Origin: an uncultured Lachnospiraceae bacterium | GTDB lineage: Bacteria > Bacillota > Clostridia > Christensenellales > UBA1242 | Length of the DNA: 64,000 nucleotides | Direction: 5' to 3' | Assembly: GCA_964393975.1 (NCBI GenBank) | Contig: CAYMVO010000001.1 | Location: forward strand, 4,055-68,054 | Shown: positions 2,488-40,506 of the stretch, one piece after another | Numbering within the stretch: the first letter of the stretch is position 1 | Layout: each line of letters starts with the position of its first letter | Program-made: the position numbers and the translations under genes | The notes under the pieces: generated by a model | The model's database searches: none | Told to the model about the DNA's origin: nothing | What the model saw: only the letters and a program-made list of their open reading frames with translations

Positions 2488-3397
2488 ATATGTTTATTCT
2501 ATTATCTTGACCTGATACTAGGATAGGTACACTCTTGCTTTTATCAAACATCCTACTAAATATTCTCTCATCGTAAATATTTAAAATCGCTTCTGGAGTC
2601 AAATTTGTGGTGAAAATTGTCAATTTGTCTTTTTGATTTCTAGAATTAATCAAAAATAAAAGATATTCATTTGTAACATTTTTTAGTTTTGGTTCTGCGC
2701 CAAGGTCATCTATCACCAATAGGTCGCTAGTTAGTAGCGGTTCTAAAATGTTTTGTTTTTCTTCTACTGATGCTAAATGATAGTTTAAAAAATCTTGATT
2801 AAGTCTAGCGGATGATATGAAAAGTGCTACAAAATCTTTTTTAATAAAATAATTAGTAATTGCCTCAGCCATACGAGTCTTGCCAACACCCGAAGAGCCA
2901 CTTAATATTATCTTATTAAATTTAAGATTAGGAAATGATACGCATATTTTTTCTAGTTTGTCTATTAAATTTTCTGGTTGTTTATCGCAATCTTTAAATT
3001 CTATTTCCTCTAAGACACCATTTATATCATTTAGCTTTTTTGCTAATTTTTGTCTATAACAATTACAATATTCACCATTAGGTAGTATACCCTCATCACC
3101 ACAAACATTACAATCAAATTGAGGAGTTAAATCATTACTAGTAAAGCCAATTTTTATCAAAATGAGGTCCATTTTTTTCTTTAAACTATCCATTTGAGAG
3201 AGTATTTGCTTTTCATCTAGTCCATTTATTCTTGCTTTTGCCAAATCTATTTTTAGTCCACCCAACTTGTTAGCTGAGTCTAGATATTCTTGATTTTGAT
3301 AGGCTAAGTGTTTGTTGCGTTCCGCTTGGTTTATAGCGTTTTGTCTTTGTTTTCTAATATCATTTAATATTGATTTTTTTATTTCACTTATGTTCAC
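2486..3397 (-). CDS. dnaI: DnaI/DnaC-family replicative helicase loader
   Basis: Walker A GSSGVGKT and Walker B LLVIDDLGAE are present. There is an N-terminal Cys cluster (CNVCGDEG...CNCY). The GTG start is coupled to the upstream gene's stop (GAGGTGTAGAGTG). Confidence 0.8.
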   Translation of the reverse strand: MNISEIKKSILNDIRKQRQNAINQAERNKHLAYQNQEYLDSANKLGGLKIDLAKARINGLDEKQILSQMDSLKKKMDLILIKIGFTSNDLTPQFDCNVCGDEGILPNGEYCNCYRQKLAKKLNDINGVLEEIEFKDCDKQPENLIDKLEKICVSFPNLKFNKIILSGSSGVGKTRMAEAITNYFIKKDFVALFISSARLNQDFLNYHLASVEEKQNILEPLLTSDLLVIDDLGAEPKLKNVTNEYLLFLINSRNQKDKLTIFTTNLTPEAILNIYDERIFSRMFDKSKSVPILVSGQDNRINI

Positions 3398-3398
3398 T

Positions 3399-4841
3399 CT
3401 ACACCTCTATATTATCAATGTTTTTAAATAATGAATTTAATTCTTCAGGGGAGTAACTATGCGATGTTACTTTATTCTTTGTAGGTGCTTCAAAATCTTT
3501 TGTGTCCTTCTCTGCTTGCTCTACGGTCTTAATATTGCTATCATTATAATGATGTAGTATCTTATTTAAATACTGCATAGGTTGTACCTTTTGACTAGAT
3601 TTTGTTATGGCATAATCTAACAATTCCTTTGATACATTAAACTTTTCTGTCCATATTTTGTACATATCTCTATCAAAAGTATTTACCGCTCTAGTGGTTC
3701 CTAACTTTTCTAAAATAATCTTGATATTAGCATCAATATCCGCTAAATCATTCATATATTCATTTAGTGCGTCTATAGTTATTATACCGAGGCGATAAAA
3801 TTTGTCTAATTTTGAGTCCATACCTTCTAGAGTCCTTGTAGATGTTTTAAAGCAATATGTAGCAATTTCTCCTAACACATCGCTTGTAAACCCTAGATTT
3901 AACCATTTACACACATAATTTTCTACCACAGGCTCAAGATTTTCATAATAAACACCTAATCTCGATGCGATAGTCTTTGCGATAGTGTAGTAGGTCGTTT
4001 TTTGAGTCTCATAAGACTCAATGAGTTCAATACTATTTAGTTGCATCGTATGATACTTTTGTAGCTTATTAGCTAATAATGTCAATCCAGATTTGTTTTT
4101 TGTTTTGAGTGATTTGGCGACGTAAAAAATGATGCTTTTATCAAAATTTAGTTCATTTTTTATTTTTGCCCATAAATCTCGCTCTTCAAAAGATGCGGTT
4201 CTGCGTATGCCAAATATCTTGAGTAATTCTCTTAAATCTTCATCATCAGAGAAATTGTCCTTGATTTCGTTGAGTACGGCTTCTAAAGTAAGTAGCCCTT
4301 TGTATGCCCACGATTTTGCTACGGTTAGAATATATGAATATCCAACATCGCCACCTTTTAGCTCTACGCAAAACTTTATGATTTGCATCAATGCTTGTGG
4401 ATCCATGTGCATACTTTCCAAAAAATTTATGTATTCATAATACTCGTTTGTACTAATCATTCTATTAGGCAACAACTCTTGCGCGCAATAACAAAATTCG
4501 CTATATTTTCCTTTTGTGATATCGTTTTCACCTATTTTAACCGCTTTTTTGACAGGTAAGTAGCGTATTTGAATAGGCTCAATATTTAACACCTTGACAA
4601 GACCTATATCTTGCAAATACATAAAGTATGCTATAACATCTTGCTCGCTAATGCTAAGCTTGTCCATAAAAGTCTTGATGTCGTTGCTTGGGTGAGAGGA
4701 GTTGTTGCAAAAATATAAACCCAATAAATAGGTCTTTACTGCTCCTTCTGGCGCCAAAGGCATATATTCAGTAATAAATAAATTGCTAACCTTTACACTA
4801 TCAATAATCGTGCGTTCATTAGAAAATTTGCAAAAATCCAT
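3399..4841 (-). CDS. DnaD/DnaB(B. subtilis)-type replication initiation and membrane attachment protein
   Basis: It carries repeated DnaD-like C-terminal (DnaB_2) modules, e.g. YILTVAKSWAYKGLLTLEAV and MQYLNKILHHYNDSNIKTVEQAE. It sits immediately upstream of dnaI, as in Bacilli. I moved the start to ATG 4841, which follows AAGGAGAAGG. Confidence 0.7.
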   Translation of the reverse strand: MDFCKFSNERTIIDSVKVSNLFITEYMPLAPEGAVKTYLLGLYFCNNSSHPSNDIKTFMDKLSISEQDVIAYFMYLQDIGLVKVLNIEPIQIRYLPVKKAVKIGENDITKGKYSEFCYCAQELLPNRMISTNEYYEYINFLESMHMDPQALMQIIKFCVELKGGDVGYSYILTVAKSWAYKGLLTLEAVLNEIKDNFSDDEDLRELLKIFGIRRTASFEERDLWAKIKNELNFDKSIIFYVAKSLKTKNKSGLTLLANKLQKYHTMQLNSIELIESYETQKTTYYTIAKTIASRLGVYYENLEPVVENYVCKWLNLGFTSDVLGEIATYCFKTSTRTLEGMDSKLDKFYRLGIITIDALNEYMNDLADIDANIKIILEKLGTTRAVNTFDRDMYKIWTEKFNVSKELLDYAITKSSQKVQPMQYLNKILHHYNDSNIKTVEQAEKDTKDFEAPTKNKVTSHSYSPEELNSLFKNIDNIEV

Positions 4842-4964: not shown

Positions 4965-6437
4965 ATGAAAAGAGTTTTTGTATGCCTTATACTAGTTATG
5001 GTGTTATTCACTGGTTGTAGTACACTAGATATAGATAAACAATCACAAAACCTAACAAATTATTATATGGATGTTGATTTAAATTTTAATGAAAAGACTG
5101 CTACATTAAATGAAAAAATAGATTACTATAATAAATGTGATATCGTATTAGACGAATTAAGATTTCACTTGTATCCGAACGCATTTACATCTAGAGACTT
5201 AAGTGTTTTACCGGTGACAGAGTTTAACTATGCAAAAGCTTATCCAAACGGGTTTGATGCGGGGAGTATAAAGATAGAATCGGTCAGCATAGATAACAAA
5301 CAAATTGATTTTGAATTACTAAACGAGGACTCAATTTTAAAAATCAATTTATTAGAAGGACTATATCCTACCAAACGAGTGGAAATCAGTTTATCTGCGA
5401 AAATAAAAATCCCAAACCTAAAACATAGATTTGGTTATGCGGAAGACACACTAAATTTTTGTAATTTTTACCCGATAGCGTGTGTTTATGAAAACGGTGA
5501 GTTTATACAAGATAGGTATACTAGCAATGGGGATCCTTTTTACAGTGAAGTCAGTAATTATCTAGTAAATGTGACTTATGATTCAAATCTAAAAGTTGGT
5601 TCTACTGGGTGGCTGGAAAAATCAGTCACGGCGGATAAAACTACTAGCACATACAAAGCAAAAGTGGTGCGTGATTTTGGTATGACTTTTAGCGAAAAGT
5701 TTGAAAAACTGGAAAAAACCGTTGATGGCATTAAATACACCTACCTTTATTATGATGATGATTTAGCGGAAAAGCACTTGCAAACGATGATAGATGCTGT
5801 AAATACTTTTGGTAATCTTCTTGGTAAATATCCTTATCCCACTATTACGGCTGTAAAAAGTGATTTTATTTACGGCGGAATGGAATATCCAAATTTTGTG
5901 ATAATTAGTGATGATTTAGTGAACGAACGCGATTATCTAAACGCACTTATTCACGAGATAGGTCATCAATGGTTTTATGGGATAGTTGGAAATAACGAAG
6001 TAAAAGAAGCGTGGCTAGATGAAGGATTGACTGAGTGTATAACGGCATTGTTTTACGAATTGAACCCAAGCTACGGAGTAGAATATCAAGAAGTTGTAGC
6101 AAGTGCTCTCAGTAGTTATATGCTATTTGTTGATGTCTATGAAGATGTTTTTGGTGAAAGATTTAACACGAGTATGAATAGGAGTTTGAGTGAGTTTAAT
6201 AGTGAACCTGAGTACACTTATCTTATCTATGTAAAAGGTCTTCTTTTGCTGGATAACCTAAGGTCGGTGGTGGGAGATAGTGGATTTTTTCTAGGTTTAA
6301 AGAGTTATTACGAAAATAGTAAATTTGGTGTCGCTACGACTGATTGTTTTATCGCTATGTTTGAAAAGGCGACCAACAAAAATCTTGAAAACATTATAAA
6401 ATCGTGGCTAAATGGAAATGTGGTCATAGAAGGATAA
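4965..6437 (+). CDS. M1-family (gluzincin) zinc metallopeptidase, predicted lipoprotein
   Basis: HEIGHQWFYGIVGNNEVKEAWLDEG matches HExxH-x18-E. The N-terminal signal peptide has a lipobox-like LFTGC. Confidence 0.8.
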   Translation: MKRVFVCLILVMVLFTGCSTLDIDKQSQNLTNYYMDVDLNFNEKTATLNEKIDYYNKCDIVLDELRFHLYPNAFTSRDLSVLPVTEFNYAKAYPNGFDAGSIKIESVSIDNKQIDFELLNEDSILKINLLEGLYPTKRVEISLSAKIKIPNLKHRFGYAEDTLNFCNFYPIACVYENGEFIQDRYTSNGDPFYSEVSNYLVNVTYDSNLKVGSTGWLEKSVTADKTTSTYKAKVVRDFGMTFSEKFEKLEKTVDGIKYTYLYYDDDLAEKHLQTMIDAVNTFGNLLGKYPYPTITAVKSDFIYGGMEYPNFVIISDDLVNERDYLNALIHEIGHQWFYGIVGNNEVKEAWLDEGLTECITALFYELNPSYGVEYQEVVASALSSYMLFVDVYEDVFGERFNTSMNRSLSEFNSEPEYTYLIYVKGLLLLDNLRSVVGDSGFFLGLKSYYENSKFGVATTDCFIAMFEKATNKNLENIIKSWLNGNVVIEG

Positions 6438-36468: not shown

Positions 36469-37612
36469 AGAGCCACTATTCCTACCAAAACACTACAAAA
36501 ATATAGAACTTAAAATCATTTTGATTACTATTATACTTTGCGTTTTTGGGTGTGTAATGGTCTATAGTGCTAGCAGTTATTCCGCTAGCATAAACTACAA
36601 TAACGAATATCATTTTTTAACAAAACAAATCATAGGTGTCGCCTTAGGGGCTATTTGTATGACGGTTATGTGCTTTGTGGACTATCGCATACTAAAGCGG
36701 TTTAAATGGTGGGCGATATTAGTGTCTTTTGTGGTATTGCTTCTTGTCTTTATACCAAATATAGGTGTCAGTAATTATGGTGCGCAAAGGTGGATAGGGT
36801 TACCTGGGTTTACCATTCAAGCAAGTGAGATAGCAAAATTTTGCTTTGTGCTATTTTGCGCGAGTTACTTATGCGACAAAGCGGACTCTATACATAAATT
36901 CAAGACTTTGTTGCCCGTTTTAGGTGTTGGACTAGCTACTTGTTTACTCATTTTATTAGAACCTAATATGTCTATCACTATGTGTGTTGGGCTAGTAATG
37001 CTAACTATGTTATTTATTGGTGGTATGCGACTAAAACATTTAGGTTTACTCTCTATACCCGCTATTATGCTCGTTCCTATGCTTATCATATTAGAACCAT
37101 ATCGTTTAAAGAGGCTTATGGCATTTATAAACCCGTGGGCATCACCACAAGGTGAGGGGTTTCAATTAATTCAGTCACTTTATAGTCTCGGAGCGGGAGG
37201 ATTATTTGGCGTCGGACTTTTTAATTCTAGACAAAAATATCAATTTTTACCTTTTTCAGAAAGTGATTTTATCTTTAGTATTATCGGCGAAGAATTTGGT
37301 CTATTTGGTGCGGGGGTTTTGATATTACTATTTTTAGCACTTATTATCAATATGCTAAAAGTCGCTAGACGTTCCGCGGATAGATTTGGGTATCTTTTAG
37401 TGGTAGGTATTACAAGCGTGCTGGCAATACAAGTCCTCATAAACCTTGCCGTAGTCACAGGCAGTATACCACCAACGGGCGTACCTTTGCCACTAATTAG
37501 TGCAGGTAGTAGTAGTCTAATTGTGTTTATGAGTGCGATAGGTGTAGTGTTAAATATAAATCGTGTAAACTCCATTCAAAATCCATATATGCTTGTCAAA
37601 TATAAACCATAA
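36458..37612 (+). CDS. ftsW: SEDS-family peptidoglycan polymerase FtsW/SpoVE
   Basis: Ten-TM pattern with SDFIFSIIGEEFG and GVPLPLISAGSSS motifs. Confidence 0.85.
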   Translation: MKNKEPLFLPKHYKNIELKIILITIILCVFGCVMVYSASSYSASINYNNEYHFLTKQIIGVALGAICMTVMCFVDYRILKRFKWWAILVSFVVLLLVFIPNIGVSNYGAQRWIGLPGFTIQASEIAKFCFVLFCASYLCDKADSIHKFKTLLPVLGVGLATCLLILLEPNMSITMCVGLVMLTMLFIGGMRLKHLGLLSIPAIMLVPMLIILEPYRLKRLMAFINPWASPQGEGFQLIQSLYSLGAGGLFGVGLFNSRQKYQFLPFSESDFIFSIIGEEFGLFGAGVLILLFLALIINMLKVARRSADRFGYLLVVGITSVLAIQVLINLAVVTGSIPPTGVPLPLISAGSSSLIVFMSAIGVVLNINRVNSIQNPYMLVKYKP

Positions 37613-37724
37613 TGTAAAAATCATTAATTCTTAAAGTAATATTTTTCCTATCTTTTTTAAAATACTTGATATTCATTTAAATTTAAGTCAAAATTTAATT
37701 TGATAAAATAAATGAAAATAATTT

Positions 37725-38114
37725 ATGACCTACGAAATGAAATTAAAAGAAAAATATTTTGATATGATTAAATGTGGAGGAAAAATTTACGAAATTAGGC
37801 TAAATGATGAAAAAAGATGACTTATTGATGCTGGTGATATTATCGTTTTCAAAAAAGAACCATGTTTGATTGAAAAAATCAATACGATAGTTAAAGATAT
37901 AATATATTTTAGTTCTTTTGAAGAAATGGCTAGCACTCTTCCACTTGAAAAAGTCGGTTTTTTAAAAGAAAGGAGTGAGGATGTTGCTAATATTTATCAC
38001 GAATTTTACACTGTTGAAGATGAAACAAAATATGGAGTTGTTGCTATAAAAGTTGAAAAAATCAATAAGATTGGGATATTTTTATATAAAAAAATTAAAA
38101 TTTTATCAATATGA
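37725..38114 (+). pseudogene. ASCH-domain-like gene interrupted by a single in-frame TGA (37818-37820)
   Basis: Reading ATG 37725 through to 38114 gives MTYEMKLKEKYFDMIKCGGKIYEIRLNDEKR*LIDAGDIIVFKK...YGVVAIKVEKI, an ASCH-like pattern. The track ORF 37866-38114 is the in-frame 3' remnant. No SD is present. Confidence 0.5.
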
Positions 38115-38133
38115 AATTTACTTTGAGAATTAA
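38111..38133 (+). repeat. left copy of 23-nt direct repeat (ATGAAATTTACTTTGAGAATTAA)
   Basis: 22/23 nt identical to 39314-39336, with the 19-mer AATTTACTTTGAGAATTAA exact. It overlaps the ASCH stop codon. CTTTGAGAAT (38121-38130) pairs with ATTCTCAAAG (38151-38160). Confidence 0.9.
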
Positions 38134-38209
38134 TAAAAAGCAAATAAAATATTCTCAAAGAGGTTTACATTTTTTTGTTGTATGATATAATAATATCATC
38201 GGAGGAAAT

Positions 38210-39091
38210 ATGAATAAGATATTATATAGTTATATTCCGTATATTGATGAGGATGTTTTTTATAATCTATTGAAAAAGACTGATAATCTAGAATATAGCA
38301 AAAGTGGTAGCAATAGTAAGTGTGCGATCATTGATAATTTTGCTGTGCTCAAAACAGGGAATATTCCAAGTCATGATAATAGTTTTCCTAAAATGATTAA
38401 TTGTTTGCATAATTTAAAAAAGGAAAATGTAAATGTCGTACAGATTTTAGGTTATGCCGTCACACGCTTAGGTGATACTTTTAACGATGGGGCTAGATAC
38501 GATAAAGGATACATAGTTCAAGAAAAGGCAAAGGGGAGCGAACTTTTATGTCCTAGTGAATTTATGGGTAAGAGCGAACAAGAATGTTATGATATCGTCA
38601 TTCGTTATTTGAAAACGCTAGATAATATCCCACAACAACATTTTGATAAATGGGTTGCTGATTATAAAATAATTACGGACAATATGGTTTTAATTGATCC
38701 AAGCAAAGAATCTAATTTTTTTTATGATGACAAAAATGGGTTCAGTTTTATTGACCTAAACTTTTTCAGTAAACAACGACTTTTTGATAAAACTAATAGT
38801 GACGGGACACTGCATCACGATTTGTTTATAGATTATACATTTTTACCTTTTAGGGCGTTAGCGTTTGGACGTTATGATAAGTATTTTAAAACTTCAAAAG
38901 ATGTTGAATTTGCGCAAAAAGTTATGAGGGGTGGATATGATAAAATGGTGAATGCTCTGCTAAAAATTGGCGTTACTTTGGAGGATATTGAATATTGTTT
39001 AGAAAAAGGCGGAATGCGAAATTCGCGAATGAGTAGTTTTAAGACTGAACGTAATGTGAAAAAAGATTTTACAGATGATTTAACAATATAA
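38210..39091 (+). CDS. hypothetical protein with protein-kinase-like/aminoglycoside-phosphotransferase-like motifs
   Basis: GGAGG SD. It has the order: SKSGSNSK loop, AVLK (candidate beta3 Lys), hinge-like IVQEKAKGSEL, catalytic-loop-like LIDPSKESN, then FIDLNF (DFG-equivalent). The assignment is by eye only. Confidence 0.35.
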   Translation: MNKILYSYIPYIDEDVFYNLLKKTDNLEYSKSGSNSKCAIIDNFAVLKTGNIPSHDNSFPKMINCLHNLKKENVNVVQILGYAVTRLGDTFNDGARYDKGYIVQEKAKGSELLCPSEFMGKSEQECYDIVIRYLKTLDNIPQQHFDKWVADYKIITDNMVLIDPSKESNFFYDDKNGFSFIDLNFFSKQRLFDKTNSDGTLHHDLFIDYTFLPFRALAFGRYDKYFKTSKDVEFAQKVMRGGYDKMVNALLKIGVTLEDIEYCLEKGGMRNSRMSSFKTERNVKKDFTDDLTI

Positions 39092-39250
39092 AAGTGTTAC
39101 TTGATTGCGTGTTTAAATTTTTAGCGTGACAACAAATAGCTTTAAAAGGCATACACTACAGGCGTACATTTACTACTAAATAACGCAGTTATTGTGCAGG
39201 TATGAGGTAATGAATAAATAAAGTTATATCAAAACTTTTAAACATAAAAC

Positions 39251-39277
39251 AGCAAAGCGTAATAACTTTGCTATTTT
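39251..39277. terminator. rho-independent terminator (usable on both strands)
   Basis: AGCAAAG-cgtaataa-CTTTGCT stem flanked by A-rich 5' and ATTTT 3' sequence. Confidence 0.6.
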
Positions 39278-39313
39278 CGTTAATTCCCAAAGTAAATTTT
39301 TTTAATTTCCACT

Positions 39314-39336
39314 ATGGAATTTACTTTGAGAATTAA
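39314..39336 (+). repeat. right copy of 23-nt direct repeat (ATGGAATTTACTTTGAGAATTAA)
   Basis: It lies 1203 bp downstream of the left copy. Here AATTTACTTT pairs with an upstream AAAGTAAATT (39291-39300). Both copies are followed ~25 nt later by AGAGGTTT...TTTGTTG and then a promoter. Confidence 0.9.
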
Positions 39337-39375
39337 CATTTATCAACCTTTGCTAGTAAATAGAGAGGTTTTTTG

Positions 39376-39404
39376 TTGACTTTGTTCTAAATGTTTAGTA
39401 TAAT
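39376..39404 (+). promoter_or_regulatory. sigmaA-type promoter (TTGACT-17-TATAAT) abutting the ruvC start codon
   Basis: -35 at 39376-39381 and -10 at 39399-39404. Only 7 nt separate the -10 from ATG 39412, and there is no SD. Confidence 0.55.
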
Positions 39405-39411
39405 AAAAATT

Positions 39412-39906
39412 ATGAGAGTTTTAGGTATTGATCCGGGATACGGAATAGTTGGGTTTGGTGTGATTGATAGCGAAAGATATGGGAGTTATAATGTAGTCGA
39501 TTATGGTGTGATAAATACGCCAAAAGAAAAATCTATTGCTGATAGAATAACACAGATTTACGACGGTATGATAAAGCTTATAGAGACATTCAAGCCCGAT
39601 GCCTTAGCGGTGGAGGAATTGTTTTTCAATACAAACATCACTACCGGTATAAAAGTAGCGGAGGCAAGAGGTGTGATACTATTAGCTGGGAGAAAAAACA
39701 ATCTTCCGACCTATGAATACACACCTCTTCAAATCAAGCAAGCGCTAACAGGTCAAGGGCGAGCAGAAAAGACACAAGTGCAATTTATGGTGAAATCTAT
39801 TTTAGGACTCAGTGCAATACCAAGACCTGATGATGCGGCGGATGCGTTAGCAGTAGCAATATGCCAACTGCAAACAAACAATTTACTGACGAATAATTTA
39901 GTTTAA
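39412..39906 (+). CDS. ruvC: crossover junction endodeoxyribonuclease RuvC
   Basis: MRVLGIDPGYG N-terminus, EELFFNTN and DAADALAVA catalytic acidic motifs are present. The track start at 39391 lies inside the promoter spacer. Confidence 0.85.
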   Translation: MRVLGIDPGYGIVGFGVIDSERYGSYNVVDYGVINTPKEKSIADRITQIYDGMIKLIETFKPDALAVEELFFNTNITTGIKVAEARGVILLAGRKNNLPTYEYTPLQIKQALTGQGRAEKTQVQFMVKSILGLSAIPRPDDAADALAVAICQLQTNNLLTNNLV

Positions 39907-39918
39907 AAAAGGTGAAAA

Positions 39919-40506
39919 ATGATTAATTATATTATAGGGACTGTAGAACACAAAGGTGATGGTTATGTTGTGTTAGAGGCAAATAGTATAGGCTATACAA
40001 TTTATGTTAGTAATAACGCGCTTGTAAACCTTATCGAAGGCGAAAAAGCAAAGCTTTTGACCTATCTTCAAGTGCGAGAAGATGGTGTATCGCTTTTTGG
40101 TTTTGAATCAATTGAAGAAAAAGAGATGTTTTTAAATCTTATCAGTGTCAGTGGAATAGGTGCAAAGATGGCTATGACGATACTTTCCGGTATTCGCTTG
40201 ACCGACCTCGGTGTCGCGATAATTTCGGGTGACCTGTCTGCTTTGACTCAAATAAAAGGTTTGGGTAAAAAGACCGCTGAGCGTATAATTGTAGAGCTAA
40301 AAGACAGAGTTAATTGTTTTGGTCTTATTGATTGTGCAGACACTTTACCGCTTGATAGCGTTTCTAATGATATTACAAATGATGCAATAGAAGTTTTAAT
40401 TAGTTTAGGACTTAGCAAGACTGATGTCGTTAAGACAGTGAAACGCGTAGCAAAAGCAGGTGACAAGAGTGAAGATATTGTGGCAAAAGTTTTAAAGGGG
40501 TTGTAA
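39919..40506 (+). CDS. ruvA: Holliday junction DNA helicase subunit RuvA
   Basis: N-terminal OB-like region, two HhH motifs ([23 protein letters not shown]) and operon position support the call. Confidence 0.9.

Follow-up and report, generated by a model that had tools for sequence, protein, structure and literature searches.

A direct repeat around a kinase-like gene between ftsW and ruvC is formed by ends of an IS30-family element

In the 64-kb stretch of uncultured gut Clostridia DNA analysed here (the window), the interval between the dcw cluster of division genes, which ends in ftsW, and the ruvCAB operon carries an ASCH-domain gene and a kinase-like gene, the latter bracketed by a short direct repeat. 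The initial annotation took this arrangement for a recombinase-less, 1.2-kb single-gene cassette, whose insertion upstream of ruvC had duplicated a target site or a recombination site. Is the repeat a trace of such an insertion, or does it have another origin? The genes and predicted signals on which the question turns are the following:

37725–38114, + strand: ASCH-domain gene (Pfam ASCH, 4e-9), with an in-frame TGA at 37818–37820
38164–38191, + strand: predicted promoter of the kinase-like gene (TTTACA, 16 nt, TGnTATAAT; 11/12 consensus)
38210–39091, + strand: kinase-like gene, 293 aa, predicted protein-kinase-like fold
39251–39272, + strand: predicted intrinsic terminator of the kinase-like gene (7-bp stem with 3 G-C pairs, T-rich tail)
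39376–39404, + strand: predicted ruvC promoter (TTGACT, 17 nt, TATAAT; 11/12 consensus)

The repeat and the genes around it

The 22/23-nt direct repeat is real (ATGAAATTTACTTTGAGAATTAA at 38111–38133 and ATGGAATTTACTTTGAGAATTAA at 39314–39336), the spacing of its copies is 1203 bp as claimed, and the TGA that ends the ASCH gene (38112–38114) does lie within the left copy. The repeat is longer than had been noted, extending over 27 nt with 25/27 identical (38107–38133 versus 39310–39336), and its local alignment score of 44 is well above chance (shuffled sequences: mean 21.3, maximum 34). A search for its 19-mer core, AATTTACTTTG[A/G]GAATTAA, with up to 3 mismatches gave 4 matches in the 64-kb window versus 0.28 expected, all of them confined to 37624–39336:

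37624–37642, – strand: core match c1 (16/19)
38115–38133, + strand: core match c2
39280–39298, – strand: core match c3 (18/19)
39318–39336, + strand: core match c4

The hairpin at the right site has arms of 20 nt (39279–39298 and 39318–39337) and not of 10 bp as originally described; the arms are 95% complementary and enclose a 19-nt loop (-13.7 kcal/mol, z = -7.3). The 10-bp hairpin reported for the left site is not significant (z = -1.1). A similar AGAGGTTT...TTTGTTG segment plus promoter, said to follow both copies of the repeat, was not borne out either: with the 27-mer masked, the intergenic regions to the left and right resemble each other no more than shuffled sequences do (p~0.11), which led us to discard the idea of a duplicated junction-plus-promoter module, and the number of promoter-like sites in the region is that expected from shuffles. 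Also discarded was a fifth, inward-facing copy at 38151–38160 (ATTCTCAAAG), which would make the kinase-like gene a unit of its own bounded by terminal inverted repeats (TIRs), as this copy is missed by the profile of IS ends described below; the hairpin that it forms is not significant. An Rfam scan of 36500–40500 at E<=1 gave no match.

The kinase-like protein has no match in Pfam, NCBIfam or PADLOC and nothing meaningful in PHROGs, and the matches of its sequence profile in the PDB were set aside as spurious designed-repeat matches only. Foldseek comparison of its AlphaFold model (pLDDT 89.7) with the PDB returned kinases (PknB, AmiN, Rio2) as all of the top 50 matches, with E~1e-4 and TM-scores of just 0.3–0.38. 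The motif D163-x-S-K-x-x-N169 and D182 are invariant, and the modelled bilobal fold, together with the putative catalytic-loop Asp/Asn and metal-binding Asp, places the protein in the protein-kinase-like superfamily. The family is very rare, with 21 homologues among 5.8 billion proteins. The homologues in the relatives L085 (73% identity), L003 (57%) and L086 (52%) have no flanking repeat, and those in L004 and L087 are also free of IS ends. In relatives, homologues are located close to ftsW with no IS present, which speaks for IS insertion around a gene already resident there. Since a similar TACATTTTTTT...TGTGATATAAT precedes the L085 homologue, the promoter seems to be a feature of the gene rather than of the repeat.

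The ASCH gene of the window, the last ~15 codons of which run into one of the IS-end relics described below, is probably a pseudogene. The same in-frame TGA is found in the strains L001, L002 and L216, and an apparently intact ASCH protein (P0022, 140 aa) was rejected as a read-through prediction, its contig having the same in-frame TGA. In L217 and L218, ASCH homologues of 113–114 aa (79% identity) follow ftsW without IS ends. On the other side of the interval, the ruvC ATG lies at 39412, 7 nt past the predicted promoter, and the RuvC Pfam match begins at that Met. The ruvC promoter of L009 has the same geometry; in this one relative, which is syntenic on both sides, ftsW is directly followed by ruvC, the ASCH and kinase-like genes being absent, and it provides the only empty-like site found. 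Because L009 is a distant relative (66–69% amino-acid identity), it does not represent a true empty site.

An IS30-family element and its relics

A metagenome scan for exact matches to AATTTACTTTGRGAATTAA found the core in at least 120 contigs. In the metagenome matches listed, the sequence on the inner side of the core is conserved and that on the outer side varies; 78 of the 115 listed matches with at least 60 nt of inner flank form two subfamilies, each with a conserved inner flank (...CCACTGTGG or ...TTTGAACTGG), and divergence begins directly outside ...AATTAA(C). At 10 loci among the matches listed, the motif is present in inverted orientation at both ends of units of 1.48–1.94 kb, and tblastn identified a homologue of the L174 transposase inside each of the 10 units (27–100% identity, some fragmentary). 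The transposase of L174, the one copy tested against a curated model, matched NF033563 'IS30 family transposase' with 94.6 bits (cut-off 80 bits) and also matched HTH_38. The terminal inverted repeats of the element family comprise ~29 nt, (G)TTAATTCCCAAAGTAAATTCCACAGTGG, and a subterminal inverted copy at the element ends gives rise to a hairpin. TIR-bounded MITEs of ~234 nt belonging to the same IS family were found in other metagenome contigs; the family is widespread in metagenomes in these two forms, as full-length ISs of 1.5–1.9 kb and as MITEs. IS30-family elements produce target duplications of just 2 bp (PMC5821093), and the flanks of the 10 full-length copies revealed no consistent target-site duplication. 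The group was not matched to any named IS, as PLSDB plasmids contained no DNA match to it and a literature search retrieved no paper containing the TIR/repeat sequence.

A profile of 80 nt, derived from 13 distinct ends of subfamily A, identified two regions when compared with the 64-kb window, 39278–39337 with E=2e-9 (profile positions 19–80) and 38111–38133 with E=0.013, and gave no other convincing match there. The relics, with a third candidate from the core search, are as follows:

37624–37642, – strand: c1 (TTAATTCTTAAAGTAATAT; 16/19 to the window 19-mer), possible third, degenerate IS-end relic
38079–38134, + strand: c2 relic, IS30-family end with its terminus at the right edge; its start may lie near 38079
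39278–39337, + strand: c3/c4 relic of ~60 nt, IS30-family end with its terminus at 39337, facing ruvC

The direct repeat thus represents the outer ~27 nt of an IS30-family IS, present twice in one orientation, and the window holds relics only, ~60 nt at 39278–39337 and 27–55 nt (38079/38107–38134) fused to the 3' end of the ASCH gene. The right edge of both repeat copies is the exact IS terminus, as one would expect of transposon ends but not of a junction duplication. The c3/c4 relic is composed of the subterminal inverted c3, the 19-nt loop and the terminal c4, in which the right copy of the reported repeat is contained; it is 80–97% identical over 30–55 nt to the ends of full-length ISs in L111, L174, L203 and L206. 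Its hairpin has the topology of the ends in L174 and L206, its arms are spaced by 38 nt where those of full-length ISs are spaced by 40 nt, and it reproduces a structure natural to the IS ends, their subterminal hairpin. The c2 relic contains the left copy (38107–38133) and lacks a subterminal inverted copy; inward of the outer 27 nt its resemblance to IS ends is weak, the match to the end of a full-length IS in L115 being 73% over 56 nt. The assignment of c1 as a third relic is tentative: it lies 11 nt past the ftsW stop codon with its terminus toward ftsW, its flanks align with c3, and it gave no match to the IS-end profile at E<=10.

IS relics are present on both sides of the kinase-like gene. 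The end of c2 is 30 nt upstream of the -35 box of the predicted promoter of that gene; on the other side the c3/c4 relic, which begins 6 nt past the terminator stem, sits between the terminator and the ruvC promoter. 'Recombinase-less' was an apt description, as no recombinase is found among the called genes nearby and tblastn revealed no transposase in the 64-kb window. No convincing target duplication of 2–3 bp surrounds any relic pair in the window; just the pair c1...c4 has the same dinucleotide, 'CA', outside both ends, as would happen by chance in 1 of 16 cases. The motif is absent from ~1 Mb of loci of relatives and was found only in the same-species strains L001, L002 and L216, and no full-length copy of this IS was seen in this species (64 kb plus short contigs).

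Possible histories of the locus

In our opinion it is likely (with a probability of about 80%) that IS30-family relics left by decayed IS copies provide the explanation of the repeat around the kinase-like gene. IS copies would have inserted in the AT-rich intergenic regions that flank the gene, together they would have formed a composite-transposon-like structure, in situ or on arrival, and internal deletions would have left one end per IS copy, as in ISApl1-mcr-1-ISApl1 (Tn6330). The relics would now be inert DNA and the gene would be immobilised, with a promoter and a terminator of its own. As a counterpoint, two independent decays, each leaving ~55–60 nt of the same-facing end, would be a coincidence. 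The searches revealed neither the kinase-like gene together with the IS as a unit at other sites nor an empty site in close relatives.

Could the whole segment 37624–39336 (c1–c4, 1.7 kb, including the ASCH and kinase-like genes) be instead one non-autonomous TIR-bounded transposon between ftsW and ruvC, in the form of a mobile insertion cassette or a decayed composite? The mutually inverted c1 and c4 with their termini outward, the 'CA' directly outside both ends and the ftsW-ruvC arrangement of L009, with synteny on both sides, would agree with such a unit, but two matching base pairs carry little weight, L009 is too distant to count as a true empty site, c1 is just a 16/19 match missed by the IS-end profile, and in L217 and L218 an ASCH gene is found after ftsW with no IS ends, which gives this gene the appearance of a resident rather than of cargo, all of which makes the single transposon unlikely. 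The position of ASCH in L217 and L218 was also the ground for rejecting the gene as cargo of a c1...c2 element. It is even harder to believe that c2 arose when the kinase-like gene inserted, by a locus-specific junction duplication that copied 27 nt from the end of an IS relic already present. Such a copy would explain why the 25/27 identity stops abruptly at 27 nt and why c2 has no subterminal inverted copy, junction duplications do bracket single genes at the locus in two relatives (L217 and L003), and a borderline ftsW 3'-end-like stretch is found at 39158–39191 (E 0.003–0.01). However, c2 stops on the right exactly at the IS terminus, a limit to which a generic duplication would not keep, c2 has an extra similarity to the IS end (over 56 nt in total), and the order of gene, terminator and full relic does not correspond to a simple tandem junction duplication.

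The mobile-DNA footprint perceived by the initial annotation stands, but its interpretation as the trace of a recombinase-less 1.2-kb cassette, which entered upstream of ruvC and duplicated a 23-nt site as attL/attR or as a long target-site duplication, is disfavoured and we give it very little credence. A direct repeat that brackets a single gene with its own promoter and terminator, the absence of this gene in L009, and the analogous junction duplications around single genes in L217 (45 nt) and L003 (~330 nt) are what a cassette would predict. Yet an att-site or target-site duplication should be unique to the locus and absent from unrelated genomes, and the repeated sequence is an IS30-family terminus dispersed over at least 120 unrelated contigs; elsewhere it flanks transposase genes and not other cargo, it stops exactly at the IS terminus, further inverted copies are present, the similarity of the promoter modules is not significant, and the homologues in L085, L003 and L086 do without such a repeat. 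The 19-mer might also be a host operator or a structural RNA element common to the ASCH, kinase-like and ruvC promoters, given that all copies are intergenic, 30–40 nt upstream of predicted -35 boxes, and that the core is better conserved than its surroundings. This explanation, likewise disfavoured, has next to no probability in view of the varying promoter spacing between copies, the negative Rfam scan, the lack, in every relative, of the motif ahead of ruvC or the kinase-like gene, and a distribution elsewhere that is that of a transposon end. Operators of the CodY, LexA and CIRCE types and dif/pdif sites were considered by eye and none fits.

In two relatives, junction duplications of another kind were observed in the same interval. 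In L217, a 45-nt repeat (43/45 identical) made up of the ftsW stop codon and the terminator flanks the ASCH gene on both sides. The gene so enclosed in L003 encodes a fucosidase, and the duplicated stretch there, ~330 nt long, takes in the ftsW 3' end, the intergenic region and the promoter. In the window, the stretch at 39158–39191, between the kinase-like gene and ruvC, is the best non-self match to the ftsW end (z~2.9 with lenient scoring), and with its borderline E-value we do not claim it as a remnant of ftsW. Whether the interval after ftsW in these uncultured gut Clostridia is an insertion hot spot that operates via junction duplication is doubtful; if it were, single genes would be swapped there by a Campbell-type or another recombinase-independent route, and the IS30 relics would be the remains of a composite transposon that once moved the kinase-like gene. 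The duplications in relatives offer a modest lead on how accessory genes enter the interval.

Comparison with known systems

Integron cassettes, att-site duplications and Xer/pdif modules share with this locus single genes, short structured repeats of alternating orientation and the lack of an internal recombinase. Unlike integron cassettes, the locus has no integrase and no attI, and its repeat is a transposon terminus; unlike Xer/pdif modules, it shows on inspection by eye no dif-like 11-6-11 arrangement. MITEs and mobile insertion cassettes, e.g. MIC231, are TIR-bounded non-autonomous elements, and the pairs c1...c2 and c1...c4 resemble them in being inverted and enclosing genes. Unlike in such elements, c3/c4 is colinear with one IS end including the subterminal repeat, and ASCH is syntenic with ftsW in relatives without TIRs; no second copy of any candidate unit of this type was found in the window or in relatives.

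With the IS30 family (IS30, ISApl1) the reference elements from metagenomes share a length of 1.5–1.9 kb, a single transposase-related ORF and ~29-nt TIRs, and the L174 transposase has the N-terminal HTH_38 and passes the NF033563 cut-off. Compared with named ISs of the family, the element has a pronounced subterminal hairpin at its ends, and what the window contains are end fragments of ~27–60 nt without a transposase, i.e. relics and not an IS. The ~29-nt end with its subterminal hairpin, characteristic of an IS30 group common in metagenomes, should help to annotate ISs, MITEs and assembly breaks in uncultured Clostridia.

The nearest precedent is decayed Tn6330 (ISApl1-mcr-1-pap2-ISApl1), in which internal deletion leaves the cargo with right-end relics of 42 or 90 bp, or with no IS at all; these relics include an intact inverted repeat, and the decay immobilises the cargo (PMC5821093). 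The window similarly presents a cargo with relics of ~27–55 nt and ~60 nt. Unlike in Tn6330, the cargo is an uncharacterised kinase-like gene of uncultured gut Clostridia, with no sign that the unit ever transposed, and the two relics of the window could be the same or opposite ends of the IS. The analysis places a kinase-like gene of a very rare family in an interval that is variable and visited by ISs, and it removes a false lead: what looked like a cassette with a duplicated recombination site is IS30-family debris, ordinary remains of a transposon and not a new kind of gene cassette.

The direct repeat and its copies

The genes run in the order mraY, murD, ftsW (ending at 37612), ASCH (37725–38114), a 293-aa kinase-like ORF (38210–39091), ruvC (from 39412), ruvA, ruvB, queA and tgt. 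The 23-mers reported by the initial annotation as bracketing the kinase-like gene are both in place, and the left copy indeed overlaps the end of ASCH. The repeat extends over 27 nt (38107–38133 and 39310–39336, 25/27 identical, spacing 1203 bp), with an alignment score of 44, whereas shuffled sequences average 21.3 and reach 34 at most. Its 19-mer core, AATTTACTTTGAGAATTAA, has four matches with up to three mismatches in the 64 kb (0.28 expected), all confined to 1.7 kb.

Copies of the 19-mer core in the window
c1, 37624–37642, minus strand: 16/19, just 3' of the ftsW stop
c2, 38115–38133, plus strand: 19-mer match, overlaps the ASCH end
c3, 39280–39298, minus strand: 18/19
c4, 39318–39336, plus strand: 19-mer match

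c3 pairs with c4 in a hairpin whose arms are 20 nt long and whose loop spans 19 nt (-13.7 kcal/mol folded as DNA, z = -7.3). Of the 10-bp hairpins proposed for both sites, the right one stands, with longer arms, while the left one is not significant (z = -1.1). The proposed duplication of a junction-plus-promoter module did not survive masking of the 27-mer, after which the downstream segments (AGAGGTTT...TTTGTTG plus promoter) are about as similar as shuffled sequences (p about 0.11); hence the duplicated unit is the 27-mer. The 40.6-kb Logan contig L001 from the same species ends at window position 39307, in the c3/c4 hairpin loop; assemblies apparently break at the palindromic IS end.

The repeat as an IS30-family terminus

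A scan of public metagenome contigs for exact AATTTACTTTGRGAATTAA identified at least 120 contigs. Among the matches listed, orientation of the hits on the motif revealed one flank conserved across unrelated contigs, comprising TTCCCACACTAAATTCCA and, immediately before the motif, CCACTGTGG in one subfamily, or TAAATTCCAGTTTTTTATTTGAACTGG immediately before the motif in another (together 78 of the 115 hits with enough flank), while on the opposite side divergence starts right after AATTAA(C). In many of these matches the motif lies about 100 nt from a contig end, as would be the case for a multicopy element. Locus L174 holds a 1501-bp unit that encodes a 412-aa protein and is bounded at either end by the motif in inverted orientation; the protein matches HTH_38 and NCBIfam NF033563 "IS30 family transposase" (94.6 bits, cut-off 80). 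Ten loci among the matches listed exhibit this architecture (1.48–1.94 kb), each with a homolog of the L174 transposase inside the unit (tblastn, 27–100% identity, some copies fragmentary), and such a homolog adjoins the motif in 18 of the 124 listed loci. The conserved inner flank and the transposase units with inverted motif ends identify the 19-mer as the outer portion of a ~29-nt terminal inverted repeat (TIR) of an IS30-family insertion sequence (IS).

The same group includes ~1.07-kb deletion derivatives (L104 and L176) and, in metagenome contigs, TIR-bounded derivatives of ~234 nt devoid of transposase (MITEs):

L100, 882–1115
L145, 6039–6272
L183, 9955–10187
L187, 993–1226
L128, 8204–8440

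Two related viral contigs (L092, 3887–3905, and L095, 8191–8209) carry a single 19-mer each, directly 3' of a G+C-rich hairpin (GGGAGTGTAATGCTCCC); no IS-like inner flank is present at these sites, so the 19-mer there is probably a chance match.

Relics in the window and competing explanations

A profile made from the CCACTGTGG subfamily (13 distinct ends of 80 nt each) matched the window at 39278–39337 (E=2e-9, colinear over profile positions 19–80) and 38111–38133 (E=0.013), with no further convincing match across the 64 kb. In full-length elements, part of the terminal 19-mer recurs in inverted form ~40 nt inward from each terminus and folds into a hairpin; c3 and c4 exhibit the same arrangement (spacing 38 nt) and are therefore read as a single ~60-nt IS end with its natural subterminal hairpin, 80–97% identical over 30–55 nt to full-length ends in L111, L174, L203 and L206. 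This arrangement led us to set aside the interpretation of c3/c4 as two ends or as a site-specific recombination site. The c2 relic is shorter, with the outer 27 nt secure; its region aligns with the IS end in L115 (56 nt, 73%), and it may start near 38079. As c1 matches at only 16/19 positions and is missed by the profile, it is a possible third relic. The initial annotation regarded the cassette as recombinase-less, and tblastn likewise detected no transposase in the window.

Three contigs of the same species (L001, L002 and L216, 99.5–100% identical) share the layout of the window. The species is not included among the genome representatives, where the best RuvC match is 68%. The only relative syntenic on both sides, L009, has ruvC directly after ftsW, with a 116-nt spacer lacking the motif; it resembles the empty site sought for the cassette, but is too distant (66–69% amino-acid identity) to count as a true one. 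ASCH follows ftsW in L217 and L218 (79% identity) without IS ends, hence it looks like a resident gene. Homologs of the kinase-like gene occur in the ftsW-to-murA interval of L003 (57%), upstream of murA-ftsA-ftsZ in L086 (52%, on a contig without ftsW) and in a different context in L085 (73%), which has the gene's promoter sequence in common with the window. The motif is absent from these three loci, and the profile gave zero matches in ~1 Mb of relatives' loci, from which we infer that the IS visited the ftsW-ruvC interval in the window's species only.

The initial reading of the repeat as a duplicated target or att site of an inserted cassette fails, since what is repeated is a transposon terminus found dispersed elsewhere, and since the kinase-like gene occurs in relatives without it; the mechanism proposed was wrong. 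It is possible that c1 through c4 delimit a 1.7-kb non-autonomous transposon: the outer ends are inverted, a 2-bp "CA" occurs on both sides of this span only (full-length IS copies show no consistent target-site duplication pattern), and ftsW and ruvC are direct neighbors in L009, but it is weakened by the poor match of c1 and by ASCH looking resident. Part of an older IS relic may instead have been copied in a junction duplication, yet this leaves unexplained why both repeat copies stop exactly at the IS terminus, a behavior of transposon ends, unlike that of a generic duplication. Nothing supports an operator or RNA element: Rfam gave no match, and relatives do not conserve the motif upstream of the homologous genes. 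The observation is real, and the feature consists of IS30-family end relics around a rare kinase-like gene.

Neighboring genes and proposed history

The 293-aa protein belongs to no family in Pfam, NCBIfam or PADLOC and has only 21 homologs among 5.8 billion proteins. An alignment of 18 sequences yielded an AlphaFold model of high confidence (pLDDT 89.7), and every one of the model's best PDB matches is a protein kinase (PknB, amicoumacin kinase AmiN and Rio2; E about 1e-4), with low TM (0.3–0.38). D163-x-S-K-x-x-N169 and D182 are invariant in the alignment, and "kinase-like" is a fair description of the predicted fold.

ASCH contains an in-frame TGA (codon 32, 37818–37820) in the window and the three same-species contigs (4/4 sequences) and is otherwise well conserved; the L217 homolog has CAA (Gln) at this position. 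Either the gene is a pseudogene that has become fixed, or the stop is read through; the database protein P0022 is predicted straight across it. Homology to the 113–114-aa relatives ends near 38065; the c2 relic thus appears to supply the final ~15 codons of the ORF. The ruvC ATG lies 7 nt past a perfect TATAAT, without a Shine-Dalgarno sequence, both in the window (39399–39414) and in the distant relative L009 (6989–7003), which suggests a conserved leaderless transcript.

The interval downstream of ftsW is variable. In L217, a 45-nt direct repeat (43/45; 2772–2816 and 3214–3258), comprising the last ftsW codons, stop and terminator, brackets the 342-bp ASCH gene; the second copy includes the ASCH stop codon. 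L003 has a fucosidase gene inserted after ftsW and bracketed by a decayed ~330-nt duplicate (2712–2940 and 3963–4280) that covers the 3' end of ftsW, the intergenic region following it and the promoter; a frameshifted FtsW C-terminus is recognizable in the duplicate (RGSIPPTGLP and AIRVVLNVDRQSRK are still readable). Window positions 39158–39191, after the kinase-like gene, match the 3' coding end of ftsW (37475–37508) at 76% identity across 34 nt; with a borderline E (0.003–0.01) this is the best non-self match in the 64 kb, and the stretch may be a remnant of such an event. These similarities suggest that single genes enter the interval with junction duplication, the type of event meant by the initial annotation, but this is not the origin of the window's repeat. 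L218 has ~900 nt without a called gene after ASCH (5346–6237). In L015 (2316–4211), from the same MAG as L003, ruvC and ruvA, adjacent in the window and most other loci, are about 860 nt apart, apparently due to an insertion.

We propose that IS copies inserted in the intergenic regions on both sides of the kinase-like gene, and that each would later have lost everything except one end. The closest documented case is that of the IS30-family element ISApl1 and Tn6330 (ISApl1-mcr-1-pap2-ISApl1), which arises by insertion at both sides of a chromosomal gene and decays by deletion to 42- or 90-bp right-end relics with an intact inverted repeat, or to nothing, thereby immobilizing its cargo (PMC5821093).
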